A DNA stretch of 64,000 nt from a virus (IMGVR_UViG_3300049171_000092:21279-85278), one strand, 5' to 3'; numbered from the stretch's first letter, positions 11,334-63,684 are shown. The notes: a model not told the origin generated them from the sequence alone. Numbers and translations: made by a program.

Positions 11334-11369
11334 ACCATCAGGTTAGGCGGGATGGATCCCCTGGGGTGG

Positions 11370-12713: not shown

Positions 12714-12737
12714 GAGCGAACCCCCAGAACGCAGAAC

Positions 12738-37145: not shown

Positions 37146-37465
37146 TACGCGGTCCAGGTGTCGTCGCGTCGGTTGAGTAGCGCCTGGATGCCGGAGATCG
37201 CGAACCAGAGGAGACCGAACTGGACGAGCAGGTTGTCGCGCCAGAACCACCACGCGGTGAGGACGGCGCCGGACAGCCAGAAGCCGAGGCAGTAGATGCA
37301 GGAGATCAGCTGCATGAGGAACTTACGGGGTCGGCTGTCGAGTTTGTTGGCGTGCCAGGTGGCGAGGCGTTCGCGTGCGGGGTCGAGGATCGTGTCGTGG
37401 ACGCCGAGTTGGGTGGCGCGGTAGGCCGCGGCGCCGAGGAGCGCGAGTTCCGGGAGTGATATCAA
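37145..37465 (-). CDS. small membrane protein resembling the DUF1360 family
   Basis: ..LISCIYCLGFWLSGAVL.. (the C-x2-C-x-x-F-W signature of that family) plus 3 hydrophobic helices. Confidence 0.55.
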   Translation of the reverse strand: MISLPELALLGAAAYRATQLGVHDTILDPARERLATWHANKLDSRPRKFLMQLISCIYCLGFWLSGAVLTAWWFWRDNLLVQFGLLWFAISGIQALLNRRDDTWTA

Positions 37466-37583: not shown

Positions 37584-38960
37584 TTACTTCCCGAAGATGG
37601 GCCGCGCGTACCGGGACCCGCCCGCCGTCTGCCGGGACGGGCCTCGCCGCGTAGGCGACTGCACCTGGGCCGCCCCCACCAGATCCACCGCGGCGACCAT
37701 GTACCGCATCGCGTCCATGCCGTGGTCGTCCTGCTTCAGCGGCTGCTCCTTCAGCCCTCCAGCCGCGCCCGGCTTGACCGCCCACACATAGCTGTTGATC
37801 TCCTCGGCGGTGGACGTCGGCTTGCCCGCGTCGGCGAGGTCCTGGTCCCGGTCGACCACGGAGTCCCGCAGGATGAACAGGCGCGGCTTGCCGTCGCCGG
37901 CCGGGCGGATCCGGGTCTGCACGGCTTGAATGCCTGGGGAGACCGTCTTCTTTGCGGCAGTCGTAACGAGGCCGGAGTGCCTTTCGAAGGTGGCCCGGTC
38001 TTCGGCGTCGTGGTCGCAGACCACCGCGGCTGGGTGCGGTTCGCCGGTCTCGCCGATGATCCGCTTTGCCTGCTTGGCGTGATCCTCGGCGAGCACCCGT
38101 GTCCTGTAGATCTCCCGGTACAGGTACAGGCGCCCGTCCCCGTCCTGTGCCCACCACTGGATCACCATGGGGTTCGTGAAGCCGAAGTCGATCGACATGT
38201 ACCGCTGCCAGGCATCTGGGACGTCGAACCGGTCGACCACGTGGACGGCGTCCTGCCACTCGTCGTAGATGATCCCCTCGGCGCTGACCCACTTGCCCCA
38301 CCGCAGACGCTGGTAGCGCGGCCCGGTGAGGCTGTCCAGGCGCGCCAGGTAGGCCTTGCCGTAGTCGGTCCATTCGCCGTTTTGGTAGAGGCGGGGGTTG
38401 TCTTCGTGGCGGCTGTAGAGGATGCGGCACCGGCCGGCGTCCGCCCGCAGTTTCAGGTGGTGGGAGGGTGGGCCGGGGTTGGTGCACATGATCAGCCGCT
38501 GGAGTGGGAGCACTCCGTTGCGGAGGCGGGACACGATCGTGTCGAGGTCTTCGGCTGTCACTTCGATCGCTTCGTCGACCAGGACGAGGTCGAATTCGGT
38601 GGACAGCAGCTTGGTGGGTCGGTCGAGGCCGCCGACGACGATGACGCTGCCGTTGGCGTACCGGTAGCTGGCGGGCTCCTGCGCCGACCCACCGAAGAAG
38701 TGCAGCAGGCCCGCAGCGATGGCTTCCTTCGCGACTTTCTCCCGGAAGCTGACCAGGGTCGACGACGTGAGTGAAGCATGGGTTTTACGGACGATCAGCG
38801 CGCGGGTGTGCGGGTTGTCGAGGCACTGGAGGTGCACGTACATGAGCGCGCCCACGCTCTTGCCCGTGCCTGCCGCACCGGAGAGGAGGATTTCGGTGTC
38901 CGTGGACCGGAAGAGTTCGCGGACGGCGCCGCGGGCTTCGAACGTGACGGTGTCAGGCAT
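37584..38960 (-). CDS. terminase large subunit
   Basis: Walker A GAAGTGKS, Walker B LVLVDEA, nuclease motifs ..SIDFGFTNP.. and ..DHGMDAMRY.. Confidence 0.92.
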   Translation of the reverse strand: MPDTVTFEARGAVRELFRSTDTEILLSGAAGTGKSVGALMYVHLQCLDNPHTRALIVRKTHASLTSSTLVSFREKVAKEAIAAGLLHFFGGSAQEPASYRYANGSVIVVGGLDRPTKLLSTEFDLVLVDEAIEVTAEDLDTIVSRLRNGVLPLQRLIMCTNPGPPSHHLKLRADAGRCRILYSRHEDNPRLYQNGEWTDYGKAYLARLDSLTGPRYQRLRWGKWVSAEGIIYDEWQDAVHVVDRFDVPDAWQRYMSIDFGFTNPMVIQWWAQDGDGRLYLYREIYRTRVLAEDHAKQAKRIIGETGEPHPAAVVCDHDAEDRATFERHSGLVTTAAKKTVSPGIQAVQTRIRPAGDGKPRLFILRDSVVDRDQDLADAGKPTSTAEEINSYVWAVKPGAAGGLKEQPLKQDDHGMDAMRYMVAAVDLVGAAQVQSPTRRGPSRQTAGGSRYARPIFGK

Positions 38961-39447
38961 CGGGTGCGTCGTTTGCGAGGCCGATGATTTCGTATCGGAC
39001 GCCGCCGGCTACGTCGATTTTCTGGCGTGCGTCGAGGCCGAAGAGGCGCCGGTAGCTTTCGCGGACCTTGACGAGCCGGTCGATCGCGGCGAGCTTCGGC
39101 CCGTCGTCCGGGAGCGGGTTGCCGTCGTCGTCTGTGACGATCCGGCCGTGGGACACCATGACGTGGTCGCGGTGGAGGACGTCCAGGGCTTCCTCGTAGA
39201 GGCTGTCGAGGCGTGCGGCTTCCTGCCGGATCAGGGCTTCGGCGGGGCCTTGGACGATTTCGCGGAGGGCGCGTTGGATGGCTTGGCGGGCGTTGGATTT
39301 GTCGGTGTAGCCGAGTTCGTCGGCGATCTGCTGGAGTGTCCAGCCTTCGGCGCGGAGTTGGGCGGCGCGGGCGTCACGTTCCGCGGTTTCGGGGGTGCGT
39401 ATGTAGCGACCTTTGCCGTCTCGGGCGTTGTCGGGCGGTGAACTCAC
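38953..39447 (-). CDS. terminase small subunit
   Basis: HTH ..GWTLQQIADELGYTDKSNARQAIQRAL.. followed by an oligomerisation-type helical region; overlaps the large terminase start. Confidence 0.8.
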   Translation of the reverse strand: MSSPPDNARDGKGRYIRTPETAERDARAAQLRAEGWTLQQIADELGYTDKSNARQAIQRALREIVQGPAEALIRQEAARLDSLYEEALDVLHRDHVMVSHGRIVTDDDGNPLPDDGPKLAAIDRLVKVRESYRRLFGLDARQKIDVAGGVRYEIIGLANDAPDA

Positions 39448-39732: not shown

Positions 39733-39739
39733 GACGTGC

Positions 39740-40012
39740 TCACTTCTCGGTGGCGCGGCCGGCGTCGATGTCCCGCTCGGTCTCGTACAGTTCGACGGCT
39801 TCCCGTGTCGCGGTCAGGCGCACTGCGCTGTCGGCGATCTGCCGGACTTGCTCGACGATCTGGCGCAGGCCGGGCGCGTCGACGCGCCCAGCTGATACGT
39901 CCTGTGCGAAGCGGGTGAGGGCGTCGCCGGTGTCCTGTGCTTGGAGGGCGAGGCGGGCCTGCTCGTCGCTCATCCTCTTGGTGAGCATGCGGTACGCCAT
40001 GGACTCGGTCAT
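39740..40012 (-). CDS. hypothetical 90-aa protein ending ..GRATEK
   Basis: Internal ATG of track ORF 39740..40135; ATGA overlap with the upstream stop. Confidence 0.55.
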   Translation of the reverse strand: MTESMAYRMLTKRMSDEQARLALQAQDTGDALTRFAQDVSAGRVDAPGLRQIVEQVRQIADSAVRLTATREAVELYETERDIDAGRATEK

Positions 40013-44509: not shown

Positions 44510-44941
44510 TCACTTCCGGTTGATGGTCTTGGCCCACACGCCGCGGGTCTCGGTGTTGCGCTGGTCCTGGTAGACGTTGCCGTGGAAGTGCTGGTGTACC
44601 TCCGGCTCGGGCCGGGCCCGCTTGACGAGCCGGCCGAGGGCGAGGACGAGGGCGGTCGGCGCACCGAACACGCAGGCGACAACCGCCGGGTTGGCGTATC
44701 CGGACGCCCACAGGACCGCGGTGGTCGCTCCGCCGGAGGTGGCGATGAGGACGCTGGCGCCGAGCATGCGCGCGGTGTCGTCGACGGCCTTGGGGCTCAT
44801 CGGCGGCCGGCCGGGCTGCGGTACGGGCGGGGTCGGCCCGACGGCGGGCACGGGGGTGTGGTCGCGGAAGGCGGTGGCGATGATGCGGTCGGCTTCCTCC
44901 TTGGCGGCCTCCTCGCTCATCGGGGTGATCTGCTCGGTCAT
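44510..44941 (-). CDS. membrane protein (143 aa, 2 TM)
   Basis: Track ORF; hydrophobic segments GASVLIATSGGATTAVLWA and AVVACVFGAPTALVLAL. Confidence 0.55.
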   Translation of the reverse strand: MTEQITPMSEEAAKEEADRIIATAFRDHTPVPAVGPTPPVPQPGRPPMSPKAVDDTARMLGASVLIATSGGATTAVLWASGYANPAVVACVFGAPTALVLALGRLVKRARPEPEVHQHFHGNVYQDQRNTETRGVWAKTINRK

Positions 44942-44950: not shown

Positions 44951-45133
44951 CTAGCTGAGGGTGATGTGGGTGGCGGTCCAGGTGCGGTTCTTGCGGGCGC
45001 TGTTCTCGCGGATCCAGTCGGCGACGAGTCGGCGGGCTTCGGTTTCGCTGGCGGCTTGGACGGTTCCGTCGGCGCGGCCGTCGTGGTGCTTGCCGTCGCT
45101 CACCTGGGCGGTCCAGCGGTAGGTGCGGGTCAT
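44951..45133 (-). CDS. hypothetical 60-aa protein
   Basis: Internal ATG; ATGA-type overlap with the upstream gene. Confidence 0.45.
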   Translation of the reverse strand: MTRTYRWTAQVSDGKHHDGRADGTVQAASETEARRLVADWIRENSARKNRTWTATHITLS

Positions 45134-45318
45134 TCGGCGTCCTCCACGCAGTGGCCGAGGATCCGCATGGCGGTCTCCTGGCGGTGGTCGCCGGAGTGGG
45201 CGGTGAGGTCGTAGGCGGCGTGGTGGCTGCCAGCGTTGAGCTGGGCGGCGGCCTCCTGCACTTCGGTCTCGGTGGGCCGGTAGCCCTTGGGTTCGTGGGT
45301 GCGTCGGATGCGGGGCAT
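45130..45318 (-). CDS. hypothetical 62-aa protein
   Basis: Track ORF. Confidence 0.45.
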   Translation of the reverse strand: MPRIRRTHEPKGYRPTETEVQEAAAQLNAGSHHAAYDLTAHSGDHRQETAMRILGHCVEDAE

Positions 45319-45327
45319 GTGGGTCTC

Positions 45328-45945
45328 CTAGTCGATGTCGCCGGTGCCGTGGCACACGGAGCAGCGGATGCTGGTGGTGTCGTGCAGGCGGGTTTCGATG
45401 GCGTGGCGGCCTTTGCCGCGGCAGGCGGGGCACGGGTTGATCGGCTGGGGCTGGTGGTCGGGGTCGGGCTGGTAGCCGCCGGCCTGGACGGTCCAGGCGG
45501 CCTCGAGCGCCCCGGCTTTCGCGGCGGCGACGCCGTTGCGGGCGGCCTGCTTGATCGGGCGGGTGACGGCGCGGACCGCCTTCCGCTTCTGCTTCCGTAG
45601 GGCGGGTTTGATGAGGCGCCGCCAGTAGATGCGGACCGCGGCCTTCACGTCCTCCGGCGTCACCTCCGGGTACAGCACCCCGGCCAGGACGGCACCGCCA
45701 ATGGTGACCTCAAACGTGTCCTCATCCTCCGGGCGCTGCCGGCCGGTGGACGCGGCCTTGATCTGCTTCAGACCGCCGACGGTGATGAGCGGGTCTTCCC
45801 AGCTGTGGGACTGCCAGCAGTTGCCGTGGACCGGCATCGCGTCGATGAAGCTGCCGCCGTCGAGGGTGAATGCCTCGCTGAGGCATTCAGGGCACGTGTA
45901 GGGGGCGCCGTCGATCGTCATCTGCTGGATCTTCAGGGTGAGCAT
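45328..45945 (-). CDS. 205-aa protein with a C-terminal DnaJ-type zinc finger (CPACRGKGRH..CSVCHGTGD)
   Basis: ATG at 45945 with a GGAGGAG SD; two CxxCxGxG motifs. Confidence 0.55.
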   Translation of the reverse strand: MLTLKIQQMTIDGAPYTCPECLSEAFTLDGGSFIDAMPVHGNCWQSHSWEDPLITVGGLKQIKAASTGRQRPEDEDTFEVTIGGAVLAGVLYPEVTPEDVKAAVRIYWRRLIKPALRKQKRKAVRAVTRPIKQAARNGVAAAKAGALEAAWTVQAGGYQPDPDHQPQPINPCPACRGKGRHAIETRLHDTTSIRCSVCHGTGDID

Positions 45946-45985
45946 GGACTCCTCCGGGGGTGGCGTTTTGTGGTGGTATGCCACC

Positions 45986-46130
45986 CGTGATGAGCGGCAT
46001 CGGTGCAGGTCAGGAGGCGTGATGGGGGCGTGATGCGGCGACCTGCCCCCGCGATGGGTTGCGGGGGTATCACGCCCCCATCACGGGAGGCGTCACGGGC
46101 CTGACCTGCGACGTCATGGGCGCGTCACGG
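45986..46130. repeat. array of nine CGTGAYG-type 8-bp repeats (4 direct, 5 inverted) including a 17-bp perfect inverted repeat; clt-, ori- or operator-like
   Basis: Direct copies: CGTGATGA 45986, CGTGATGG 46018, CGTGATGC 46029, CGCGATGG 46050. Inverted copies at 46068, 46078, 46091, 46112 and 46123. CGTGATGGGGGCGTGAT (46018-46034) is inverted against ATCACGCCCCCATCACG (46069-46085). Confidence 0.6.
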
Positions 46131-48266
46131 GCGCTCCCCTGTCAGAGACAAGATCGTTGCCAGGTAGTAGCCTCGGCCTCCCGACCACTGTTTGACGCGC
46201 ATGTCCACGCCCGGCGCAACCTCATTGGCTACCTCCCGGAGAGCCTTCAGGAACCGGTCGCGTGCCTGGTCGAAGTCCCCGTCCTCCTCGGGGGCCCAGT
46301 CGCTGGACGCTGCAGCGACGAGCTTGTACAACTCGGTGCTGGTCATCCGGTCCGGGTCACCGACGGAAGCGAACGCGGCACGGGCGAGGGCGATCGGCTC
46401 GGGGACCTTCGGCGCCGGGGCGCCAATGCGCCCCTTGCCGCCCTCACCGCCGGCCGCCGACGACACACCGGTCTCGGCGACGAGCTGCTCCTCGATCAGG
46501 TCCCGCCACTGTCCCGGCAAGCGCCCGGCGGCCTTGCGGATCTCGTAGGCCTCGGCGGCGACCCGCTTCTTGTCCTCGGGCTTCACCAGGTAGGAGCGGA
46601 CCTCGATCACGCCGGTCTCCGGGGTCGACAGCCAGGCGCGACCCGGCTGGTCGATCGGGATCTTCGACGCGTCGTAGCCCTGCCCGGTCATGCCGTCGCC
46701 GAGGATCGTGTTCGACGCGGTGCCGGACTCGGTCTTCATCGCCGCCCGGGCGACGTGGTTCTGCCGGAGCCGGCCGCGGATGACGTCGACCTCGGGCACC
46801 TGGGTGAGGCTGATGAGGGTGACACCGAGCGCGGCACCGACGGCGGCAATCTGTGACAGGTTCTCGGTGATCTCGTCCGCGTGGGGGCTGGTTCCCTTCG
46901 GGGTGTAGGTGGCGAGTTCGTCGACGATGAAGACCTCACGGCCGCCGAGGAGGCGCATGCACTCCTCGTAGTTGTCGTCGTCAATCTTTTCGTAGCCGTA
47001 CTCGTCGAGGAGGTCGGAGCGCCGGTCGATCTCCTCCTTGATCAGGCGGGTGATGACGGCGAGACGCTCCGGGCTGCGCTTCACGAACGTGGCCATGATC
47101 GGCGCGTAGGGGTTGTGCTCGGCGGTGCCCTTGCCGTCGAAGACGCGGACGTTCACCCACGGGTCCTTGGCAATGCCGAGCAGGATGTTCGCCAGCAGCA
47201 TGCCTTTACCGCGGCGGGTGGCGCCGCCGACGATGATGCTGCTGTCGCGGATCCACAGAGTGATCGGCTCACCGTGCTTACCGAACGCGACAGTGACGCC
47301 GTCGCGGAAGGTGTTCACGGGCCCGTCGTGGTCGATCAGCGGGGACCGGCGGACGATAGCGAACGGGTCGCTGCTGGACACCCACACCTTCAGCCGGGAT
47401 TCGCTGCTGCCGGGGCTGCGGTCGACGTCGAGGTCGATCCAGTCGCGGTGCACGGCGAGCGCGGACGCGATCTTCTGCTGCTGTTCCTTGCCGAGGGCGG
47501 CGGAGGCGGGGATGCCGGAGGGCAGGTCGACGGCGTAGGCGATGCCGGGGCCGTCGCTGTGGGGGATGCCGACGCCGCGGATCTCGGCCGCCCGCCGCTC
47601 GGGGACGACGCCGGCTTCGACGAGGACGCGCCGCATGGTGTCCTCGCCCAGGTGGCTGGTCCGGGTTGGCGCCTGCGCCGGGGCGGCGACGGGCTCTTCG
47701 GGCCGGCCGAACCAGGCGCCGGTGAGGATGACGGCGATGGCCATGAGGATCTGCACCCACAGCCCGCCAGCCACGGCGGCGATCGTGCCGCCGCCGACGA
47801 GGACCAGGCCGCTGATGCCGGTGCGAATCCAGTGCCGCGTCTTGTGGGCCTTGAACTCGGCGCGGCGCACGTTCAGCACGGCGCGGGCGCTCGACTCGGC
47901 GGCGGCCCGGTCCTTGCCCCGCGGCAGGTCCTTCGCTTCGCGGATCATCTGCTTGGCGGTGGCGATCTGCTGCCGGTAGTCGTCGTGCCGTGCCTCCCAC
48001 CACCTAAGGCACAGGCGCCGGTAGCCGCGCACCGACCAACCCAGGTAGTACGGCGAGTGGGTGGCGTGGAAGCGGACCGCATCGATCGCGTTGTCCCGGG
48101 CGTACACGGCCCACTGGCGGAGCTGCTCGCCGGACATCATCCATGCCGGGCGGGGGCGCTTCTCGAACTCGTAGACGGGGGCCGGCTCGGGGTCCTTGGT
48201 GAGCGTGGCGGTGATCTGCTCCCACTCCGGATCCGGGGTGCTGCTGGGGGTCGTCTCGATGCTCAC
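46125..48266 (-). CDS. FtsK/SpoIIIE-family DNA translocase (TraB-like), 713 aa
   Basis: Two N-terminal TM helices, Walker A GGATRRGKG, Walker B VFIVDE, ..LISLTQ.., and a C-terminal HTH-like ..RMTSTELYKLVAA.. Confidence 0.85.
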   Translation of the reverse strand: MSIETTPSSTPDPEWEQITATLTKDPEPAPVYEFEKRPRPAWMMSGEQLRQWAVYARDNAIDAVRFHATHSPYYLGWSVRGYRRLCLRWWEARHDDYRQQIATAKQMIREAKDLPRGKDRAAAESSARAVLNVRRAEFKAHKTRHWIRTGISGLVLVGGGTIAAVAGGLWVQILMAIAVILTGAWFGRPEEPVAAPAQAPTRTSHLGEDTMRRVLVEAGVVPERRAAEIRGVGIPHSDGPGIAYAVDLPSGIPASAALGKEQQQKIASALAVHRDWIDLDVDRSPGSSESRLKVWVSSSDPFAIVRRSPLIDHDGPVNTFRDGVTVAFGKHGEPITLWIRDSSIIVGGATRRGKGMLLANILLGIAKDPWVNVRVFDGKGTAEHNPYAPIMATFVKRSPERLAVITRLIKEEIDRRSDLLDEYGYEKIDDDNYEECMRLLGGREVFIVDELATYTPKGTSPHADEITENLSQIAAVGAALGVTLISLTQVPEVDVIRGRLRQNHVARAAMKTESGTASNTILGDGMTGQGYDASKIPIDQPGRAWLSTPETGVIEVRSYLVKPEDKKRVAAEAYEIRKAAGRLPGQWRDLIEEQLVAETGVSSAAGGEGGKGRIGAPAPKVPEPIALARAAFASVGDPDRMTSTELYKLVAAASSDWAPEEDGDFDQARDRFLKALREVANEVAPGVDMRVKQWSGGRGYYLATILSLTGERP

Positions 48267-48733
48267 TTCGCGTCCTTTTCAACGGTGCGCTCGAGGCGCG
48301 CTTGGGTGCGGGCGATGGGGTGATAGGGCGCGGTCTGGCCCGGACGGCGGATGGGTGGGGTGCCGCCATTGCGGCGCCGCCGGTCGGCGACTCGGCCGAT
48401 CGTTGGGCTCAGGACGAGGGCGGCAGCCTGTTCGCAGACCACGTCCCAAACCTCACGGGCAGTAATCAGGCCCAGGCTTGAGGTCTCGCTCCAGCCGCTG
48501 TACCGCATCTCGGTTCCGGTGAGGTAGTGCGGCACGTAGAGGTGGAACCTGATCTCGAAGAGAGTTGCCTGTTCGATCTGCCGGGCGAGGCTCCGGGTGG
48601 CAACGGTGAGGCTTCGATAGGGCTCCCACCCGCGCCGGCCGAAGTACTCCAGCCGGCGCGAGTTGGAGGTGGTGCAACCGACCTTTACCGCCCGGAATTC
48701 AGGGTGCGTCAGCACGTAGGCGAGGCCCGTCAT
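48263..48733 (-). CDS. GIY-YIG-like (T5orf172-type) domain protein with an Arg-rich C-terminal tail
   Basis: ..AYVLTHPEFRAVKVGCTTSNSRRLEYF..; tail RRRRNGGTPPIRRPGQTAPY shared with the upstream protein; 4-nt overlaps. Confidence 0.55.
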   Translation of the reverse strand: MTGLAYVLTHPEFRAVKVGCTTSNSRRLEYFGRRGWEPYRSLTVATRSLARQIEQATLFEIRFHLYVPHYLTGTEMRYSGWSETSSLGLITAREVWDVVCEQAAALVLSPTIGRVADRRRRNGGTPPIRRPGQTAPYHPIARTQARLERTVEKDAK

Positions 48734-50034
48734 TCGGGCTTCTCCCCTACCTTCCGAGCGGCCGTCTCGCGGCCGATCTGACGCCTAGCCCCTTCGCTAT
48801 ACGGCCGGGTGTCTCCTGCGCGACGGACGGGAGGCGTGCCGCCGTTGTTGCGGCGCCCGTCGGGCGCTTCGGGATCCCTCTTCTGGCGACGCTTGATTTG
48901 GGATTCGATCAGCGACAACGGTCCCTCTATGGGCAGCTCGGTGACCGTCTGCATGCGGGCCTGCGCGGCACGCGACTTGGCCTCGATTTCGGGGGTGATG
49001 CCGACCGTCTTGCAGCCCGTCACCCGGTACCAGGCTTCGGCCCAAATCTGCTCGGTCACGTACTGCGAGCCGCGCGCCGCGCGCATCGCGTCGGCGACCT
49101 CCCACACCTCGAAGTGGCTCGCCTTGCGGTCCTCGTCGCGGCGCCGCTGCTCCTCCTCCGCCCGGGCCTGCGCAGCGGCCTTCTCTCGGGCGGCCTTTTC
49201 CTCGGCAGCCTTCCGCTCCTCGCGTGCCTTGCGCTTCGCCGCCTCCTCCTCGCGGCGCTCCCGCTCGGCGGCGCGCCGCTCCCGGAAGGAGGGGATGCCG
49301 TCGGCTTTCTGAGCGATGCCGTGCTCGTAGGCCATGAGGACGATCGGCCCGCCGAGGGAGGCGATGGCGCCGATGAGGCCGGCGTTCAAGCCGATGGCGG
49401 GATCGGTGAGTCCGTGCCACAGGTTGATCCCGGCGGCGATAAGCGCGCCGGCCATGATGCCGATCCGGTACGGGAGAACGTCCCGCCGGTGGGCGACCGC
49501 CCAGGCGGCACCGCAGGCGAGGACCAGGGCGAGGCCTTCGAGGAGCGCCGGGGCGGCGATCATGAACGGGCGCTTCTCGTCCCAGAACGCGAGGAACTGC
49601 ACCGGCGCGGCGATGATCAGACCGACGAGGTAGATGCCGCGGGCGCCCCACTTCCACAGGTTCTCGCTGCGCTTCTGCTCGGCGGCCCGCTCGTCTTCGG
49701 CGGCCTTCTCCTCTGCGGCGGCCTGCTGAGCCTTCTCTTCCTCGGCCTTCGCCTTGGCGGTCTCCGCGCGCTTCTTCGCGAGGTGCGCCTGGTGATCGGC
49801 GCGCTCCTTCTCCAGCCGCATCGCCGCACGCTCGTTGGCGATGCGCAGCTTCTCAGCCTCCTCGGCGGCCTTGAGCTTCTCGGCTTCGGCCTCGGTCTCG
49901 GCCTTGATGCGGGCGGCGTCGGCCTTGGCGGCGGCTTCGGTCCGGATCGCCTCCGCCTTGGCCAGCGCGACAGCGTCGAAGCCGGGCTCGGCCATGGCGC
50001 GGCCGTTGACCTTCTCAATCGACGTGGCGGTCAC
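48730..50034 (-). CDS. coiled-coil plus multi-TM membrane protein (434 aa), DUF2637-like / Spd-like
   Basis: Ala/Glu/Lys-rich coiled regions flank 4-5 TM helices; tail GRRNNGGTPPVRRAGDTRPY. Confidence 0.6.
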   Translation of the reverse strand: MTATSIEKVNGRAMAEPGFDAVALAKAEAIRTEAAAKADAARIKAETEAEAEKLKAAEEAEKLRIANERAAMRLEKERADHQAHLAKKRAETAKAKAEEEKAQQAAAEEKAAEDERAAEQKRSENLWKWGARGIYLVGLIIAAPVQFLAFWDEKRPFMIAAPALLEGLALVLACGAAWAVAHRRDVLPYRIGIMAGALIAAGINLWHGLTDPAIGLNAGLIGAIASLGGPIVLMAYEHGIAQKADGIPSFRERRAAERERREEEAAKRKAREERKAAEEKAAREKAAAQARAEEEQRRRDEDRKASHFEVWEVADAMRAARGSQYVTEQIWAEAWYRVTGCKTVGITPEIEAKSRAAQARMQTVTELPIEGPLSLIESQIKRRQKRDPEAPDGRRNNGGTPPVRRAGDTRPYSEGARRQIGRETAARKVGEKPE

Positions 50035-50056
50035 GGTGGATCAGTCCCTTCGGTCT

Positions 50057-50245
50057 CTAGCTGGCGGTGACGCGGGCGCGTCGGTACAGGCGGGTGGATT
50101 CGCCCTGGCGGGCGGACGGTTGGGGGGTGAGGCCGTTGAAGTGGTTCTCGCCGGGGCTGGTCGGCTGCCAGGCGCGGGCGGGCTTGGGTCCGCGGCTGTC
50201 GTCGGTGCGGGCGGCCCCGCCTTCGGTCTCGTTGCGCCAGGCCAT
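50057..50245 (-). CDS. hypothetical 62-aa protein
   Basis: Internal ATG; TGATG overlap with the upstream stop. Confidence 0.4.
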   Translation of the reverse strand: MAWRNETEGGAARTDDSRGPKPARAWQPTSPGENHFNGLTPQPSARQGESTRLYRRARVTAS

Positions 50246-50445
50246 CAGGCGACCGCCTTCGCGGGTGCGGGCTTGTGCTTCAGCCAGCCGACGGCGGCGG
50301 CCAGCAGCAGGACGGGGCCGGGGATCGCGGCGAGGATCACGGCGGCGCCGGTCGCGGCGAGGGTGATCGGGGCGGCGGCGGCCGGCCACAGGCCGACGAG
50401 GACGAGGAACAGGGCCAGCAGCAGCCAGCGGACGGAACGGAGCAT
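50245..50445 (-). CDS. small membrane protein (66 aa, 2 TM)
   Basis: MLRSVRWLLLALFLVLVGLWPAAAAP.. hydrophobic. Confidence 0.5.
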   Translation of the reverse strand: MLRSVRWLLLALFLVLVGLWPAAAAPITLAATGAAVILAAIPGPVLLLAAAVGWLKHKPAPAKAVA

Positions 50446-50545
50446 GGCGACCTCTTCGGGGATCGGGACGGATGGGGGTGGTCTGGTTGGCGCCCCGGGC
50501 CGGATCCGATCCGGCAGCGTCACGCCGGGTCCGGGGCTGGGTGGG

Positions 50546-50719
50546 TCAGCTGAGGCGCTCGACCTTGACGTCGAGGTCCCGCGGGTCGTTCTTCGCTGCC
50601 TCCAGCCGCCGGTCGAGGTCGGCCTGGCTGTAGACGTTCACGCTGTCGGTCGAGGCGCCGGTGACCGTGTTGACCTTCTGGCCGGTGCGGCTGGTGGCAG
50701 TGAGGGCCCACTTCGGCAT
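50546..50719 (-). CDS. hypothetical 57-aa protein
   Basis: Internal ATG (MPKWALTATS..) of track ORF 50546..50884. Confidence 0.45.
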   Translation of the reverse strand: MPKWALTATSRTGQKVNTVTGASTDSVNVYSQADLDRRLEAAKNDPRDLDVKVERLS

Positions 50720-50802
50720 TGCGTTGTTCCTCTCGGTTGGGTTGGAAGCGCTGGCGCGGTTCCCCTCACCGCCGGTACTGGACCGGCGGATCGGGGAGCC
50801 GG

Positions 50803-50976
50803 TCAGCGGGCTTCGCGGACCTCGACCTGGTCGACGTCGTAGCCGTCCCTGCTGAGCGTTTCCTTCGTGCCGAGGCGCGCCCACGCCTCCGAGTCGGCGC
50901 TGATGGTGCCCTCGACCTGCTGCTTCTCGAAGGTCCAGCGGTTGGTGGCCTCGGCCTTGATGTGGAACTTCTTCAT
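50803..50976 (-). CDS. hypothetical 57-aa protein
   Basis: Internal ATG (MKKFHIKAEA..) with an AAGAAAGG SD region. Confidence 0.45.
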   Translation of the reverse strand: MKKFHIKAEATNRWTFEKQQVEGTISADSEAWARLGTKETLSRDGYDVDQVEVREAR

Positions 50977-51113
50977 GGGACTGCCTTTCTTCTGGGTGGT
51001 CGGTTGGTGGTGGTGCGTGCCCCGGGCCCGAGTCGATCCGGCGCCCTCACGGCTGGATGCCGGGGCTGGTGCCGGGCGGCGGCGGGGGTGTCCGCCGCCC
51101 GGCGGTCGGTGGG

Positions 51114-51338
51114 TTAGGCGGCGGCCGGGTAGTGGAGGTGCAGCTCGGTGCAGCTGGTCACCCAGTCCAGGTGGATCGGGCACGTGGTCCGCTGGTCGAG
51201 CGGCACCGCGTACACGGCCTCCCGGTGCAGCGCCCGGTCGAGGGCGTCACCGAACAGGTCGGCGATCGTCGTCGTGGAGCGGACGCGCTGGCCCCGGTCG
51301 GTGCGGGCGAGGTCGGCGTTGGAGATGTACGGAGACAT
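51114..51338 (-). CDS. hypothetical 74-aa protein
   Basis: Track ORF. Confidence 0.45.
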   Translation of the reverse strand: MSPYISNADLARTDRGQRVRSTTTIADLFGDALDRALHREAVYAVPLDQRTTCPIHLDWVTSCTELHLHYPAAA

Positions 51339-51385
51339 GGGTGGTCAGCCCTTTCAGGTCAGTGGGATGGGGCGGGGTGGGGTGG

Positions 51386-51691
51386 TCAGGCGGTGGGGCG
51401 GAGCAAGGCGCGGCACTTCTCCGCGTGGGACTGGGCCCAGTAGCGGGCGTCGTCGCAGAGGCTGCTGGTGAAGAAGTCGTCGCCGAGCGTGTTGGCGTCC
51501 ATCCCGAGGTGCGTGTAGACGTCCTTCTGCCTGCATCCCTGGCAGTAGGCGGTGATCGTGATGTCGGTGATCGTGCCGACGCTGGTCTGGCGGTCGATGC
51601 CGATGGCCTTGATGTCGGCGGTGGCGCCCACGATGGTCAGGTAGCGGGCGATGACACCCTCGGGCCAGACGGCCTGGGTGGAAGAAGGCAT
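51386..51691 (-). CDS. hypothetical 101-aa protein
   Basis: Internal ATG (MPSSTQAVWPEG..) of track ORF 51386..51739. Confidence 0.5.
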   Translation of the reverse strand: MPSSTQAVWPEGVIARYLTIVGATADIKAIGIDRQTSVGTITDITITAYCQGCRQKDVYTHLGMDANTLGDDFFTSSLCDDARYWAQSHAEKCRALLRPTA

Positions 51692-51800
51692 GGCTGATCT
51701 CCTCGGTTGGTCATGCCGGGATGGGATGGGGTGGCGCAATGGTGGGAAGCCGCGGGTGGCGGGACGGGGGCGGACACGCCACCCGCGGCGGTCAGGTGGT

Positions 51801-51941
51801 TTAGCGGGACTGCTGGGCGGCGGCCAGTCGGGCGGCCTCGGCAGCGGCAGCGGCTTCGGCGGCCTGCTTCGCCGCCTCCATGTGCTGGCGGGCCTGCTCG
51901 GCGAGCGCCTTCGCGGCGGCGCCCTGCTCGGCGGGACTCAT
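51801..51941 (-). CDS. 46-aa Ala-rich helical protein
   Basis: ATGA overlap with the upstream stop. Confidence 0.35.
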   Translation of the reverse strand: MSPAEQGAAAKALAEQARQHMEAAKQAAEAAAAAEAARLAAAQQSR

Positions 51942-52150
51942 GACGCCTCCCCGACGAGGTGCAGGTGCGGGGTGGCCGGCTCGGGTCGGCCGGTGGTGAC
52001 GGGCACGAACCGGTGTCCGAGCCGGGTGCGGGTGACGGGGTCGATCGCCACCAGCTCCACGTAGGGCGACTCGCCATCCCAGCCGGGCCACCCGGCGAGA
52101 ACCTCGTCGGCCAGCGTCTGCAGCGGCTCCAGCCGCTCCCGCTCGGTCAC
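51938..52150 (-). CDS. hypothetical 70-aa protein
   Basis: Track ORF; GTGA overlap upstream. Confidence 0.45.
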   Translation of the reverse strand: MTERERLEPLQTLADEVLAGWPGWDGESPYVELVAIDPVTRTRLGHRFVPVTTGRPEPATPHLHLVGEAS

Positions 52151-52323
52151 GACTCACGCTCCGGCAGGTAGGCGCCGTTGTCACGGTGGGCGTAGGCAGC
52201 GATGGCGCCCGGTTCGTAGGGCTGGCGGACGATGGCCATCAGGTCGTCCGGCCACCAGCCGAGGAAAACCTCGTCGACCGCGGCTTCCAGTTCCGGGCTG
52301 GGCTCGGGAACCTGCACGGTCAC
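52147..52323 (-). CDS. hypothetical 58-aa protein, weak paralog of 51938..52150
   Basis: GTGA overlaps at both ends; ..AVDEVFLGWWPDD.. compares with ..LADEVLAGWPGWDG.. Confidence 0.35.
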   Translation of the reverse strand: MTVQVPEPSPELEAAVDEVFLGWWPDDLMAIVRQPYEPGAIAAYAHRDNGAYLPERES

Positions 52324-52442
52324 CACCCCCGGACCTTCAGCGCGCGGCGGCGGGCGGTGGTCTCGCGGGGCAGCGGCGGCAGGTCCGGCGTCGGCTCCGG
52401 CCGGCGAACGTCCCGCGTCGGCATCTCGTCGGCGGCGCTCAC
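52320..52442 (-). CDS. hypothetical 40-aa protein
   Basis: GTGA overlaps at both ends. Confidence 0.3.
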   Translation of the reverse strand: MSAADEMPTRDVRRPEPTPDLPPLPRETTARRRALKVRGW

Positions 52443-52678
52443 CAGTCCTCCCCCGGGATGCGGCCCTCGCGGAACGCCTGGGCTTCCTCGCGGTACTCCG
52501 CCGCGTGGCGCAGAGCGATCGGCACGGTGGCCGCGGCCTGCTTGCGGGTGGTGTCGGAGAGGGTGGGGTCGTTGGCGGCAGCCTTGGCGGATTCGGCGTT
52601 CCGCTCGGAGCGGGCGGCGCACTTCTCGCGGTCGACGGCGAGCTCGTTCATCTCGCGGCGTGACATGCGGGCCATCAC
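52439..52678 (-). CDS. hypothetical 79-aa protein
   Basis: Track ORF; 4-nt overlap upstream. Confidence 0.45.
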   Translation of the reverse strand: MMARMSRREMNELAVDREKCAARSERNAESAKAAANDPTLSDTTRKQAAATVPIALRHAAEYREEAQAFREGRIPGEDW

Positions 52679-52947
52679 GCACCGCCGATCAGGTCGAGGC
52701 GGCCGGCGTCGGCGAGCTGGGCGCGGGCGGCGTCCTTCATGGCCTCGGCGGCGGCCAGGCTGTCGGCGTCGAGGTCCGTGAGCCGGCCAGCCTCGGCGAG
52801 CGCCGCCAGCTGCACCGCGTGCTCGGCCGCCGTCTCGTACTGGGCGACCGCACGAATCAGCGGGAACTCGGACTGCAGACGAGCCAGCATCTCGGCCGCG
52901 GCCGGCGGCAGCGGGGCGGTCAGGACGGGGGTGGGGGTGGACATCAC
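52675..52947 (-). CDS. hypothetical 90-aa protein
   Basis: Track ORF; 4-nt overlaps. Confidence 0.45.
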   Translation of the reverse strand: MMSTPTPVLTAPLPPAAAEMLARLQSEFPLIRAVAQYETAAEHAVQLAALAEAGRLTDLDADSLAAAEAMKDAARAQLADAGRLDLIGGA

Positions 52948-53195
52948 GCGGCCTCCTCGGCAGCGGTGGGGGTAATCAGCGAACCGTTCAGGTAGGCCTC
53001 GACGGCCGACTCCGGGATACGGACACCGCGCGGACGGACCTTGCCGCCTCCGTTGCGGTGGGCGGTGAGTCGGCCAGAGGAGATGAGGTTGTAGACGGTG
53101 GAACGGGAGACGCGGAGGCGGCGGGCGACCTCCATTGCGTTCAGGAACTTCGGGACGTCGGCCACGTTGTCCGCGGCCGGGGCTTCGTGGCTCAA
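52944..53195 (-). CDS. excisionase-type (MerR-like HTH_17) DNA-binding protein, first gene of the leftward operon
   Basis: ..MEVARRLRVSRSTVYNLISSGRLTAHR..VRIPESAVEAYL... I preferred the TTG at 53195 with a GGGAG SD. The track ORF extends to 53240 and would overlap the operator. ATG 53135 is also possible. Confidence 0.6.
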   Translation of the reverse strand: MSHEAPAADNVADVPKFLNAMEVARRLRVSRSTVYNLISSGRLTAHRNGGGKVRPRGVRIPESAVEAYLNGSLITPTAAEEAA

Positions 53196-53237
53196 GGCTG
53201 CTCCCGGGTCGTTTGGGCAGGTGTGGGAAACCACCTC

Positions 53238-53292
53238 CACTTAGACGTGTAGGTGGCGTGTTCCAAGAGTGCTCCCACTTAGACGTCTAAGT
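53238..53292. promoter_or_regulatory. operators: half-palindromic CACTTAGACGTGTAGG and a perfect 16-bp palindrome ACTTAGACGTCTAAGT
   Basis: Same core as the 18-bp palindrome at 54172-54189; located just upstream of the Xis-type gene. Confidence 0.65.
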
Positions 53293-53321
53293 CAAGCGCT
53301 GCGAGTTACACACTGCCCAGG

Positions 53322-53356
53322 GACACAAAAAGGCCCCCACCGAAGGGCGGGGGCCT
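53322..53356 (-). terminator. rho-independent terminator of the GntR gene
   Basis: AGGCCCCCACC gaag GGCGGGGGCCT hairpin, followed on the minus strand by TTTTTGTGT. Confidence 0.7.
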
Positions 53357-53372
53357 AAGAGGAGCGTTGCCG

Positions 53373-54119
53373 TTATGCGTCGATCACGTAGTCCAGGATG
53401 TAGCTGCCGCCGTCCAAGCTCATCTCATTGACCTCCACGGCACGCCCGCTCTCTTCGAAAGCCGTGCGAACCACGCAGGCGACGGGCGTACCAGGACCCA
53501 GCTTCATGACGGCCAGCTCTCTCGAGTTGGGCATGCGCACGCGGACCTCCTCCTTGAAGCGAACCGGCCCATGCCCGGCCTCTTCCAAGCGCCTGTAGAT
53601 GCCCCCCTCGCCCGTGTCCTGCTCCATGATCTGCGTACCCTCGGCCAGGTCGAGAGGGATGTACGAGTCCGACATCAGCACCGGTCGACCATCCAGCACG
53701 TAGTGCCGACGGCGGCGAAGCACGGCCTGACCTCGCGGAATACCCAGCGCTTCCGCTACCCGTGCAGACGCCTCGAAGGTGTCGATCTCAAGCCCCTCCA
53801 CCTTCGGCTTAGCGTTGCGCACATCGATCGACCACATCGAAGTGCCAGCCCCCCAGACCTCACGCGACAGTCGATCATTGGCCAAACGCCGAATGGGCTT
53901 GAAGTCGCGGACTATGGCCTGCTTGCCCTGCCCTCCAACTGTGAGCCCTTGGTCTCGGAGGAGGCGCAGCGCCTTCGTGACAGTCTCACGGCCGGCCTTG
54001 AACTCCGCCATCACCTCGGACTCGCTGGGGATCGGGTCACCCGGTCGGTACTGGCCTCGCTCGATGCGAGCACGTAGCTCCTCAGCGATCTCCTTGTAGC
54101 CCATCTTGATCCCAGCCAA
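53373..54119 (-). CDS. GntR-family (HutC/UTRA-type) transcriptional repressor, Kor-like
   Basis: N-terminal wHTH ..YKEIAEELRARIERGQYRPGDPIPSESEVMAEFKAGRETVTKALRLLRDQGL.. and a C-terminal UTRA-like domain of about 160 aa; TTG start. Confidence 0.8.
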   Translation of the reverse strand: MAGIKMGYKEIAEELRARIERGQYRPGDPIPSESEVMAEFKAGRETVTKALRLLRDQGLTVGGQGKQAIVRDFKPIRRLANDRLSREVWGAGTSMWSIDVRNAKPKVEGLEIDTFEASARVAEALGIPRGQAVLRRRRHYVLDGRPVLMSDSYIPLDLAEGTQIMEQDTGEGGIYRRLEEAGHGPVRFKEEVRVRMPNSRELAVMKLGPGTPVACVVRTAFEESGRAVEVNEMSLDGGSYILDYVIDA

Positions 54120-54171
54120 GTCCGTCCCTCCACGAGTTCGGCTCCGGCGAACGACTTCTGTCGACCCGCTT

Positions 54172-54189
54172 GACTTAGACGTCTAAGTC
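54172..54189. promoter_or_regulatory. perfect 18-bp palindromic operator GACTTAGACGTCTAAGTC
   Basis: Lies 53 nt upstream of the GntR start, in the divergent intergenic region. Confidence 0.7.
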
Positions 54190-54304
54190 GCCGAATGTTG
54201 TCCAGTAGTTCCACGAGTACGCAACGCCACGGCCTGCGGCTACACAAGCCTCTCCTTGCCGCCAGGCCATGCCAACGTGCCCACGCGTCAACTGTACGCA
54301 TCGC

Positions 54305-54316
54305 TTCCACGTGGAA
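54305..54316. promoter_or_regulatory. perfect 12-bp palindrome TTCCACGTGGAA upstream of the GIY-YIG-GntR gene
   Basis: Lies 24 nt before the ATG at 54340; a GTTCCACG half-site is also at about 54209. Confidence 0.4.
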
Positions 54317-54339
54317 CGCCAGCAAGGCGAAGGGACATC

Positions 54340-54933
54340 ATGCCTGACCTCATCCAGCGAACAGCTCTATACCGCTTCTTCGACGCGAAGGGGAACTTGC
54401 TCTACGTCGGGATCGCCAAGGACCCGAAGCGGCGCTGGCGCCAGCACGCCATAGACAGCTCTGACACCTGGTGGCCGGACGTCCACCGGAAGGAAGTCGA
54501 GTGGCACGAGAATCGCGCGGAGGCCGAGGAGGCGGAAAAGCGGGCGATTCGCACTGAAGGACCCTCGTACAACACCGCGCACACGGCGACCGGCATCGAG
54601 AGACGGCCGGGATGGGTGAAGCCAGCACCAGCGCCTTCAGCTCGGGCTGAAGCCGCGCGCCACTCTCAGCAACAGCGCGGAATTTCGTTCAGCATGCAGA
54701 GTCGGAGCGCCAAGATGTCGATGCCTGATCTGGTGGCGCAGACGCTCCGCGACGAGATCAGTGCGGGCCAGTACACGCCCGACGTCCGTCTCCCTAGGGT
54801 CGCCGATCTCGCCAAAAGGTTCGGGATCAGTCGACCGACTGCGTCACTCGGCCTCCAGATCCTCAAGGATGAAGGAATCCTCGAGAGCCGCCCCGGTGTC
54901 GGGACCTTCGTCATCCGCGCTCCAGCTCGGTGA
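54340..54933 (+). CDS. GIY-YIG nuclease-like domain fused to a GntR-type winged HTH (197 aa)
   Basis: N-terminus ..LYRFFDAKGNLLYVGIAKDPKRRWRQH..EAEKRAIRTEGPSYN. C-terminus ..LRDEISAGQYTPDVRLPRVADLAKRFGISRPTASLGLQILKDEGILESRPGVGTFV. Confidence 0.7.
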   Translation: MPDLIQRTALYRFFDAKGNLLYVGIAKDPKRRWRQHAIDSSDTWWPDVHRKEVEWHENRAEAEEAEKRAIRTEGPSYNTAHTATGIERRPGWVKPAPAPSARAEAARHSQQQRGISFSMQSRSAKMSMPDLVAQTLRDEISAGQYTPDVRLPRVADLAKRFGISRPTASLGLQILKDEGILESRPGVGTFVIRAPAR

Positions 54934-62771: not shown

Positions 62772-63361
62772 GCTGCCTCCTCAAGGTGGATGGCGAGCTT
62801 CTGCCCAACAAGGGCGAGGAGTTGTTCGGCTCGCTGCAGGCTGAGGGTGGATCCGCCGGACAGCATCATGTGCAGGTGTTTGGTGCTGAGACCGAGGCGT
62901 CGGGCGGCTTCGGCTTGGGTGAGGCCGGCGGTGGTGAGGGCGTGGCGGGTGAGGTGGCGTAGCTGGTCCTCGAGACCACTCGCTGGTTCCGGCAGAGGGC
63001 TGCCGTGCGGGGTCGCGGGCTGGTGGCGTCCGCGTTCGGTGAGCTGGTAGAAGCGGCGTGGCGGCCGGCCGGGGTGGGGGCTGTCCTCGAGCCAGGCTTC
63101 GACCCAGCCGTGCCCGTGGAGCCGGTTCAGGATCGGGTAGATCGTGCCGGACTTCAGGCCGGTAATGCGGCAAATCTCGAACCCCCAGACAGGCTGGCCT
63201 GCGTCGCGGAGAGCGGCGAGGACCAGCCGGGTCGGAGTCGTGAGACGGAACGGGGCGGGCTCGGTCGCTTCGGGCGCTGCCGGGGTCGCCGTCTGCCGGG
63301 CCTCCCGCTCGGTCTGCTGCCGGCGGGCCCAGTCGATGGGCCCGCGGGGCTGGTCGTTCAT
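62768..63361 (-). CDS. PadR-type wHTH fused to an XRE-type HTH regulator (197 aa)
   Basis: ..GFEICRITGLKSGTIYPILNRLHGHGWVEAW..RRFYQLTERG.. then ..LTQAEAARRLGLSTKHLHMMLSG... ATGA overlap upstream. Confidence 0.65.
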   Translation of the reverse strand: MNDQPRGPIDWARRQQTEREARQTATPAAPEATEPAPFRLTTPTRLVLAALRDAGQPVWGFEICRITGLKSGTIYPILNRLHGHGWVEAWLEDSPHPGRPPRRFYQLTERGRHQPATPHGSPLPEPASGLEDQLRHLTRHALTTAGLTQAEAARRLGLSTKHLHMMLSGGSTLSLQRAEQLLALVGQKLAIHLEEAA

Positions 63362-63684
63362 GCGGCTTCCTTCCGGGAGTTGCGGCGTTCGTTGCGGTAG
63401 GCGCGCTCCCCCGCCTTGCACAGGTCGCAGGGGCCCTCGCCGCGGTACAGGTGGGCGGCGTAGCCGGCGTGATCGCCGTGGCGTTCCCGGCGGAGGATCC
63501 CGGCCTGCCAGGCGAGGTGCACGGCGTTGGTGATGTTGACGGCGTCTAGGCGGTGGCAAATGACCCGCTCGTGGTAGTCGACGGTGCTGACCGCGATGTT
63601 CAGCTTCGCGGCGATCTGTGGGCCGCTGTGGCCGTCGGCGCGCAGACGCAGAATCGCGAGCTGCCGGTCAGAAAACGTGGTCAC
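63358..63684 (-). CDS. LuxR/GerE-type HTH protein (108 aa)
   Basis: ..LSDRQLAILRLRADGHSGPQIAAKLNIAVSTVDYHERVICHRL.. Confidence 0.65.
   Translation of the reverse strand: MTTFSDRQLAILRLRADGHSGPQIAAKLNIAVSTVDYHERVICHRLDAVNITNAVHLAWQAGILRRERHGDHAGYAAHLYRGEGPCDLCKAGERAYRNERRNSRKEAA

Follow-up and report, generated by a model that had tools for sequence, protein, structure and literature searches.

The region between positions 44,951 and 54,189 of a 64,000-nucleotide stretch of viral DNA (IMGVR_UViG_3300049171_000092:21279-85278; the whole stretch is referred to here as the window) carries a gene module that sequence comparison strongly supports as homologous to, and collinear with, the TraR-Spd-TraB-clt region of the Streptomyces conjugative plasmids pSG5 and pZL1. 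We consider it probable that this region is a complete transfer-and-spread module of the Streptomyces plasmid type, located in the early operon of a temperate siphovirus-like element and serving virion-independent spread. In the mechanism that we propose, release of a repressor would allow expression of the operon, and hexamers of a TraB-like translocase would load, via their C-terminal domains, onto a repeat array in the element's own double-stranded DNA (dsDNA). The hexamers would then pump DNA through a membrane or septal channel made of an SpdB2-like protein and other small membrane proteins, and the DNA would pass through hyphal cross-walls to reach adjacent compartments and, possibly, mycelia that are in contact. 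As a result, the phage genome, or the excised prophage, would spread without a virion alongside packaging and lysis. Such dual mobility, or maintenance as a plasmid-prophage, is made plausible by analogy with the plasmid-phage pZL12.

The largest gene of the module (46125–48266, minus strand) encodes a TraB-like dsDNA translocase of 713 amino acids (aa) that matches phrog_1358 (1.6e-39). Its layout comprises an N-terminal region, two transmembrane (TM) segments (residues 147–187), an FtsK motor and a C-terminal winged-helix-like domain (residues 623–709). The hydrophobic stretch 147–187 leaves room for two TM helices and aligns with the equivalent region of pSG5 TraB. The Walker A (GATRRGKG, residues 348–355) and Walker B (DE, residues 449–450) motifs are invariant in 34 homologues, indicating purifying selection on the ATPase. 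The AlphaFold prediction for the protein (predicted local distance difference test score, pLDDT, of 72) matches FtsK motor structures in a Foldseek search with an expectation value (E) of 2e-13, and residues 623–709 are predicted to form a helix-helix-helix-β-hairpin (pLDDT 80–90). The features by which a TraB protein is recognized, that is, an FtsK motor with Walker A and B motifs, N-terminal membrane association and homology to the characterised TraB of pSG5, are all present. The identity with pSG5 TraB amounts to 29% over 518 residues (E 7e-34) and that with the pZL1 protein to 39% (E 2e-81), and matches to the plasmid proteins of CP075612 and pZL1 taken together range from 39 to 41% identity (E 1e-69 to 1e-85). 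The best phage match has an E value of 4e-11 and comes from Bacillus phages; phage matches are confined to FtsK-like proteins of Bacillus, Geobacillus and Listeria phages, with 25–30% identity over one third of the protein (for the Bacillus proteins, the motor core only), and no Streptomyces phage homologue was found at E<=1e-5 among 50,697 phage genomes. The membrane-anchored FtsK/SpoIIIE ATPase described by a first-pass annotation of the window is thus borne out by the PHROG match, the fold match and the TM stretch. The grouping with non-conjugative phage FtsK-like proteins, which that annotation had named as the outcome that would speak against its view, was not seen, since TraB-type proteins of plasmids are closer in pairwise comparison.

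The second large gene of the module, at 48730–50034 on the minus strand, encodes a 434-aa SpdB2-like spread protein. SpdB2 has been described as an N-terminal coiled coil followed by four TM helices and a C-terminal domain (PMC4447253), and the 434-aa protein agrees with this description: a charged, coiled-coil-like N-terminus (residues 1–120, of which 77% are E, K, R, D, A or Q) and a second charged stretch accompany four hydrophobic or TM segments at residues 130–236 and a C-terminal domain. The position of the gene likewise agrees with that in pSG5 and pZL1. BLASTP aligns the protein with the 404-aa protein of pSG5 at E 4e-5, and a profile of its family matches the proteins at the DUF2637 position of pSG5 and pZL1 with an hhalign probability of 98% (E 2e-13) over the TM block and the following domain. 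Homologues that are 75–77% identical are labelled DUF2637 in UniRef. The earlier description of this gene product as a coiled-coil, multi-TM Spd/DUF2637-like protein is therefore sustained by the profile match to the pSG5 and pZL1 proteins.

Directly 3′ of the traB-like gene lies a clt-like array of eight 8-bp repeats (45984–46138), in keeping with the first-pass annotation, which had placed an array of 8-bp repeats against the 3′ end of the FtsK gene; the eight copies fall within ~150 bp. Five 8-mers of the CCCGTGAY type in gene orientation are followed by three inverted copies, and the traB-like stop codon lies inside the first 8-mer. The array forms a large imperfect palindrome, interleaved with a GCAGGTCAGG/CCTGACCTGC inverted repeat, and contains a perfect inverted repeat of 17 nucleotides (nt). 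Seven copies conform to SCGTGAY and one is a CCCATGAC variant. The background frequency of SCGTGAY is 0.24 per 200 nt and no other part of the window reaches more than 3, which makes the array ~30-fold enriched. The clt regions of Streptomyces plasmids contain 8-bp repeats that are recognised by the corresponding TraB (PMC4447253). It is the C-terminus of TraB that binds these repeats, and the associated TraR is a GntR repressor.

To place the array in a wider context, 16 related loci (designated by L numbers and drawn from genomes, IMG/VR and metagenomes) and three plasmids were compared. A short-repeat array directly follows the translocase stop codon in every compared locus, the plasmids pSG5, pZL1 and CP075612 included, and these arrays have in common a direct-then-inverted layout and a GCAGGTCA...TGACCTGC bracket, with an 8-mer that differs between loci. 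Class A (CCCGTGAY) is found in the window and L020; class B (CCCTGAC) in L005, L011/L016, L015 and L021; class C (GACCCTGCC) in L009 and L014; class D (GGTCTGMC) in L006, L017, L019 and L022; class E (GGTCGGACA) in L008, L018 and L007; and a plasmid class (CCCGGAC) in pSG5 and CP075612. The last 85 residues of the translocase sort by repeat class and not by the relatedness of the motor domains. The L014 and L015 proteins, whose motors are 94% identical, share only 35% identity over the C-terminal 85 residues and have different 8-mers; L018 has a motor 93–94% identical to those of L006 and L017, a C-terminal identity of 66–71% and a different 8-mer. Conversely, the L018 and L008 motors are only 78% identical, whereas their C-termini are 87% identical and their 8-mer is the same. 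The window and L020, with CCCGTGAY in common, have C-termini that are 75% identical. This co-variation of 8-mer and C-terminal domain, independent of the motor, points to a candidate pair for specific protein–DNA recognition and implies that the array behaves as the cognate recognition site of the translocase, as the clt locus does for TraB.

Homologues of the translocase (57–93% identity) and of the SpdB2-like protein (70–100%) occur in large numbers in genomes of Streptomyces and in metagenomes from soil, and full-length homologues are conserved in >100 clusters. The block is collinear in all loci, with the SpdB2-like gene, the TraB-like gene, the array, a gene for a 205–218-aa zinc-finger-like protein and a gene for a 143-aa protein with two TM segments following one another in that order. 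Linkage to packaging genes was judged within the 10 kb available downstream of each locus. By this measure, packaging genes lie <=10 kb downstream in the window and in six loci: a phrog_38 terminase and a portal in L009, L015 and L022; a phrog_9 terminase, a portal and a protease in L018; a terminase in L017; and a portal in L014. The linkage to at least three unrelated terminase PHROG families indicates a conserved phage module and not a chance insertion, as expected if the region is a mosaic but functional early-region module.

These data bear on the possibility that the region is a passenger, namely a fragment of a plasmid or of an actinomycete integrative and conjugative element (AICE) that recombined into a prophage ancestor, has no role in phage transmission and may be decaying. 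Such an origin would fit the lack of any homologue of the module in >50,000 deposited phage genomes, those of isolated Streptomyces phages included, the plasmid provenance of the best homologues, and the insertion of a mobile gene between the spdB2-like and traB-like genes in the window copy. It is difficult to reconcile, however, with full-length homologues at 57–93% identity in so many clusters, all with invariant catalytic motifs, with a position and orientation in the early operon that stay constant across elements with different structural modules, and with an array and a C-terminal domain that change together, which requires selection on their interaction. Nor is the module flanked by an AICE integrase, rep gene or att borders. 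A mere passenger is therefore very unlikely. The more specific proposal of a nested AICE was rejected. An AICE was defined here by the presence of Int, Rep and Tra in one 9–24 kb element bounded by att repeats. Tra is present, whereas neither a tyrosine or large-serine integrase, nor RepSA, RepAM or Prim-Pol, nor flanking direct repeats occur in the window; the linkage to different phage structural modules is conserved, and the phage element that surrounds the module exceeds 64 kb. The full gene set for virion, packaging and lysis corresponds to that of a phage-plasmid of the pZL12 type. Modules of this kind make prophage and AICE predictors disagree, so that many such elements are probably mis-annotated.

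Upstream of the operon, the gene at 53373–54119 (minus strand) encodes a GntR/HutC-type repressor with a GntR winged helix-turn-helix (Pfam, 8.9e-16) and a UTRA domain (1.2e-26), the putative counterpart of TraR/Kor. It is 31% identical to the GntR protein of pZL1 (E 1e-23), and a GntR/UTRA gene is retained at this position in the relatives. The repressor gene is co-directional with the operon in the window and divergent in some relatives (L009, L022); an intrinsic terminator at 53331–53356 on the minus strand (an 11-bp stem with 9 GC pairs and a T-run) separates it from the early operon. A 16-bp palindrome, ACTTAGACGTCTAAGT, occurs at three sites versus 0.02 expected by chance. One perfect copy lies upstream of the repressor gene (54173–54188), through which the repressor may regulate its own synthesis, and the two others lie in the early-operon control region (53239–53292), a perfect one at 53277–53292 that overlaps a TTGACT hexamer and an imperfect one with two mismatches at 53239–53254. 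The repressor and the perfect palindromic operators claimed by the first-pass annotation were thus confirmed. We infer a promoter in the control region, with the qualification that a strict sigma-70 scan found none. The arrangement is that of a TraR/Kor system, with a GntR-family repressor adjoining the operon and repeated operators at its own and at the operon's presumed promoter. The exact operator core is absent from all relatives, indicating that their repressors and operators have diverged.

The operon begins, as had been anticipated, with an Xis-type gene (52944–53240, minus strand) for an HTH_17 (Xis/MerR-like) DNA-binding protein (Pfam, 1.1e-12), which is conserved in L005, L008, L011 and L022. 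It is followed by ~11 small open reading frames (ORFs) of 50–120 aa (50057–52947, minus strand) without family assignment, several of which are joined by 4-nt start/stop overlaps; the overlapping chain described earlier is real, and the earlier count of about 15 is too high for the interval between the Xis-like and 434-aa genes. A Pfam search with ten of the small operon ORFs gave no match. At the same position relatives encode DUF4236 proteins and KilB (PF27072, the family of the pIJ101 spread/kil gene), for example at 6508–6960 and 8488–8688 in L011/L012 of S. spectabilis; neither KilB nor DUF4236 is detectable in the small ORFs of the window.

In plasmids, TraB and Spd are toxic and slow growth when their expression is unregulated. 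The dedicated repressor and the KilB-family protein in the operon of relatives could also be taken to mean that the module arrests hyphal growth or remodels septa in the lytic cycle, or that it excludes incoming plasmids or phages, the more so as traB and traR form a kil–kor pair and pocks reflect growth retardation (PMC4447253). A purely toxic or excluding function would nevertheless have no need of a cis-acting repeat array, and still less of one that co-evolves with a DNA-recognition domain. The co-variation of array and domain consequently counts against this account, as it does against that of a passenger, and we hold a role in growth arrest or exclusion to be distinctly improbable.

The gene order is interrupted in the window by an inserted 156-aa ORF (48263–48733, minus strand), located between the spdB2-like and traB-like genes and without a counterpart in any of the relatives. 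At its N-terminus it shows a weak T5orf172/GIY-YIG-like character; the small GIY-YIG-like protein of the first-pass annotation thus exists as an ORF, with a label that depends solely on a sub-threshold T5orf172 match (E 0.0099). The tail of the ORF (~30 aa) duplicates the C-terminal tail of the SpdB2-like protein, with 64% identity over 28 aa, as would be expected if a gene of the homing-endonuclease type had entered spdB2 close to its 3′ end and duplicated the target in the process.

Two further genes accompany the array. The first, at 45328–45984 on the minus strand, encodes the 205–218-aa protein, which bears a C-terminal CXXCXGXG zinc-finger-like motif (Pfam DnaJ_CXXCXGXG, below threshold); it is always the first gene after the array and is 55–73% identical in all relatives and 29% identical in plasmid CP075612. 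The second, at 44510–44941 on the minus strand, encodes the conserved 143-aa protein with two TM segments (phrog_19266, 3.7e-45). Its homologues adjoin an FtsK-like gene in pZL12 (pZL12.70c, L025 7958–8461; 40% identity, 7e-16), in plasmid CP075612 and in the relatives of the window, and one is also listed at L001 2144–2524. It is possible that TraB-type translocases have in this small membrane protein a conserved partner that has gone unrecognised. The identification of the genes downstream of the array as homologues of Spd198 and Orf140 was rejected, as they show no similarity to the 193-aa and 141-aa proteins encoded at the same position in pSG5.

On the other side of the repressor gene, a divergent ORF (54256–54933, plus strand) combines a GIY-YIG domain (Pfam, 6.5e-10) with a C-terminal GntR-type winged helix-turn-helix (5e-15), and the two genes have the intergenic operator in common. 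Homologous divergent genes are present in L011, L015 and L016. The GIY-YIG nuclease occupies residues 38–106 and the GntR-type winged helix residues 160–219, an unusual domain order; the coding signal of the ORF is weaker than that of neighbouring genes, and a GntR/UTRA-like gene takes its position in relatives.

The window has a guanine plus cytosine (G+C) content of ~70%, and its minus strand holds nearly all genes between ~4.1 and 53.2 kb, as judged from a gene call based on third-position G+C. The phage late region, identified with PHROGs and Pfam, is co-directional on that strand (4120–39447). It encodes a TerS-like protein (38953–39447), TerL (37584–38960; phrog_2), the portal (35433–37253), a MuF-like head morphogenesis protein (32037–35312), the major capsid protein (29843–31489), the major tail protein (20136–20822), a head–tail adaptor (19228–20037), the tape measure protein (14092–17334), minor tail proteins (10264–12776), an amidase (6557–7654) and a small serine resolvase/recombinase of 195 aa (4120–4707). 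The full module for packaging, head, tail and lysis, and the small resolvase, were accordingly recovered as first described. The capsid protein is ~49% identical to those of Streptomyces phages TP1604, YDN12 and BabyGotBac, and ~50% identical to the products of capsid genes on circular ~100 kb Streptomyces plasmids. Megablast of the region against phage genomes gave no match and that of 40–64 kb against plasmids only two short patches, so that no close sequenced relative is present in those phage and plasmid collections. Searches for exact copies of the translocase, the PASTA protein and the resolvase gave no match, probably owing to different choices of start codon, and an exact copy of the capsid protein was found on a 6.4-kb contig only.

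The first-pass annotation had regarded the window as a complete siphovirus genome and had argued from its missing replication and integrase genes. Neither point stands, since the element runs past both ends of the 64-kb window. On the right, homologues of the LuxR gene at 63358–63684 and of the gene next to it are located upstream of the module in L018, L019 and L022; on the left, other viral contigs have the sequence 59–3566 conserved downstream of the resolvase. The 434-aa product has an identical counterpart on an 85,278-bp contig of JGI metagenome 3300053172. In L026 (IMGVR_UViG_2912715099_000002, upstream of L018), a C5 DNA methylase and a DnaB-type helicase (PF03796, 7e-83) are encoded at 121–4397, upstream of the LuxR-like gene, at a position whose equivalent in the present element would lie just beyond coordinate 64000. 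Searches of the window found neither long-range direct repeats of the att type nor tRNA genes, and the integration borders are therefore not in the window.

The same data bear on the idea that the module serves inheritance. In this scenario the element is an extrachromosomal plasmid-prophage, the pump acts on the array to clear copies across sporulation or vegetative septa in the manner of FtsK/SffA, so that no spore or compartment loses the prophage, and the resolvase resolves multimers. It would accord with the FtsK-family fold of the motor, with the resolvase as the sole recombinase in the window, with the occurrence of the module on separate contigs of ~55–59 kb in several assemblies, with the related capsid genes on circular plasmids and with the precedent of pZL12, a plasmid-prophage (PMC4487206). 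Set against this, the closest homologues of the translocase are TraB proteins of conjugative plasmids and not FtsK or SffA, transfer between compartments would suit the SpdB2-like protein and, in relatives, KilB, the window shows no par or rep genes, and many relatives lie in Mb-size contigs, some of 7–10 Mb, and are presumably integrated. Relatives include contigs of S. mirabilis (JBEXXZ010000049, 57.6 kb) and S. swartbergensis (NGFN01000008, 58.9 kb), and copies in the chromosomes of S. spectabilis, S. violaceus and S. cyaneogriseus. We regard a function in inheritance as unlikely, albeit somewhat less so than the passenger and exclusion accounts.

The favoured reading of the region as a transfer-and-spread module must also accommodate several observations that weigh against it. 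The Pfam FtsK_SpoIIIE profile (PF01580) scores 21.9 bits on the translocase versus a cut-off of 24, and DUF2637 has no direct Pfam match on the 434-aa protein of the window. In the window copy, the inserted 156-aa ORF separates the spdB2-like gene from the traB-like gene and could disturb their coupling. Loci L005, L006, L011/L016, L020 and L021 are without packaging genes in the available 10 kb. The pZL12 precedent is analogous, not orthologous (FtsK-like protein, E 0.16). Finally, the 64-kb window is without a recognisable replication, partition or classical integrase gene, an absence that says little because the element extends beyond both ends.

Several other features of the window deserve description. 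Relatives of the resolvase that are 80–94% identical occur in 15 IMG/VR viral contigs, one of which, of 75.5 kb, also encodes TraB-like and SpdB2-like homologues. In prophage predictions derived from isolates, resolvase relatives lie 1–5 kb from a predicted end, with conserved small genes beyond; the enzyme might be an integrase instead of a plasmid resolvase. In the late region, a 17-nt motif, CTGGTTKTGGGCCGGGC, is present in nine minus-strand copies between 8884 and 31540 (copy starts, given as the plus-strand first base, at 31535, 22137, 20863, 18227, 17379, 12754, 11329, 9720 and 8901), with a single near-match on the plus strand. Each copy lies 25–35 nt upstream of the start codon of a late gene (capsid, major tail, tape measure, minor tails and others). 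Most copies have a −10-like hexamer (for example, TAAACT, TAACCT or TAGACT) and GCCG ~10 nt upstream, and a short hairpin follows several of them. The motif resembles a late promoter or leader in repeated form, or else a processing signal. Two very large ORFs that separate the capsid from the tail genes (22225–28535, minus strand; 849 aa and up to 1390 aa), both assigned to phrog_18824, contain several internal repeats of 59–176 nt. A repeat of ~50 nt occurs in four copies at the 3′ ends of small minus-strand ORFs (344–739 and 39736–39785), with three tandem copies at the left edge of the window and one that ends a 131-aa gene upstream of the small terminase. The two ORFs that were translated end in the peptide ...TEK. 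The copies represent a small paralogous gene family common to both ends of the element.

Taken beyond the single element, the comparison of loci leads us to a more tentative proposal, to which we give somewhat less than even weight. The window would belong to a large undescribed family of temperate Streptomyces siphophages (>100 protein clusters in public genomes and metagenomes, and no isolated member) that routinely possess the complete TraR-SpdB2-TraB-clt set and use it to move their own double-stranded genomes virion-free from one hyphal compartment or mycelium to another, which would give them two routes of transmission. Exchangeable cassettes would define at least five mutually exclusive transfer groups. 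The specificity cassette would consist of the C-terminal winged helix and the matching 8-bp array. Conjugation and transport in phage particles are presented as alternatives in a 2025 review on the mobility of plasmids (PMC12282955), a division that an element family with both routes would blur. If the proposal is true, it would help to explain the spread of prophages through a multicellular, septated mycelium, phage genomes could reach hosts that lack the phage receptor, and chromosomal DNA could be mobilised, as it is by TraB-type systems in Streptomyces. The co-varying domains and repeats also provide at least five natural specificity pairs on nearly identical motors, directly usable to test how winged helices of the TraB/FtsK type read 8-bp motifs.

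Among characterised systems, the rolling-circle conjugative plasmid pSG5 offers a close parallel. Its genes are ordered as GntR, 151 aa, 80 aa, 404 aa, 73 aa, TraB and a repeat-rich spacer, and those of pZL1 as GntR, three small ORFs, the DUF2637 protein, a small ORF and the FtsK-domain protein; the window has the same order as both. As in pSG5 and pSVH1 (PMC4447253), an SpdB2-type protein of ~400 aa with four TM segments is followed by a small ORF and a TraB of ~710–770 aa. As in pSG5, the translocase combines a membrane anchor, an FtsK motor and a C-terminal winged helix, both large proteins are significantly homologous, and 8-bp repeats together with a TGACCTGC-type inverted repeat lie downstream of the translocase gene. 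The two systems differ in context, as the window module resides in a phage early operon that is followed by packaging, head, tail and lysis genes, whereas pSG5 is a 12-kb plasmid with Rep. They also differ in the repressor gene, co-directional and with its own terminator in the window and divergent in the pSG5 type, and in recognition sequence, the 8-mer being CCCGTGAY in the window and CCCGGAC in pSG5, with TraB proteins that are 29% identical. The closest annotated homologues of the translocase are those of pZL1 (NC_023316) and CP075612, which have synteny and array type in common with the window, and CP075612 keeps homologues of the 45328–45984 and 44510–44941 genes as well. The 8-mers of these two plasmids differ from that of the window, and the parts of them that were examined revealed no genes for phage structural proteins. 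pZL1 is, in addition, typed in PLSDB with a relaxase (MOBF) and mating-pair genes of the type IV secretion system kind.

Among phages, Thoma et al. (PMC4447253) described SpdB2 homologues in the temperate actinophages φC31 and VWB, which in their view might assist the spreading of phage DNA. By description these two phages have a Spd homologue only, whereas the window has the repressor, the SpdB2-like protein, the TraB-like protein and the array; a tblastn search of φC31 and VWB gave no match to the TraB-like or SpdB2-like protein of the window. Virulent Streptomyces phages (for example, Jaresh and AndoPrime; PMC13587820) and Bacillus siphophages have an FtsK-family ATPase domain in common with it, and SpdB2, GntR and a repeat array are not part of their descriptions. 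We found no description in the open-access literature of a TraB and clt set of the pSG5/pSVH1 type in phages or prophages.

The one experimentally studied precedent for both capacities on a single element is pZL12 (GQ919031; Zhong et al., J Bacteriol 2010, cited in PMC4487206 and PMC3583192), in which a full siphovirus module and a conjugal transfer locus coexist. Zhong et al. reportedly found pZL12/ZL12 to be both a plasmid and a lytic phage, with a tra locus needed for conjugation. The layout of pZL12 resembles that of the window, with GntR, small ORFs, a membrane protein, an FtsK-like protein, the 143-aa homologue, terminase, portal, tail and lysis genes in succession. Orthology of the tra proteins was rejected, given the E values of the FtsK-like protein and of the membrane protein (0.019 for the latter), and the structural genes are mostly unrelated; pZL12 differs further in possessing parAB, a repA locus and an integrase-like gene, which were not found in the window. 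A phage with a Streptomyces-type conjugation locus is thus already known from pZL12. What sets the present module apart is that its TraB-clt-SpdB2-TraR set is complete, widely distributed and equipped with exchangeable specificity cassettes.

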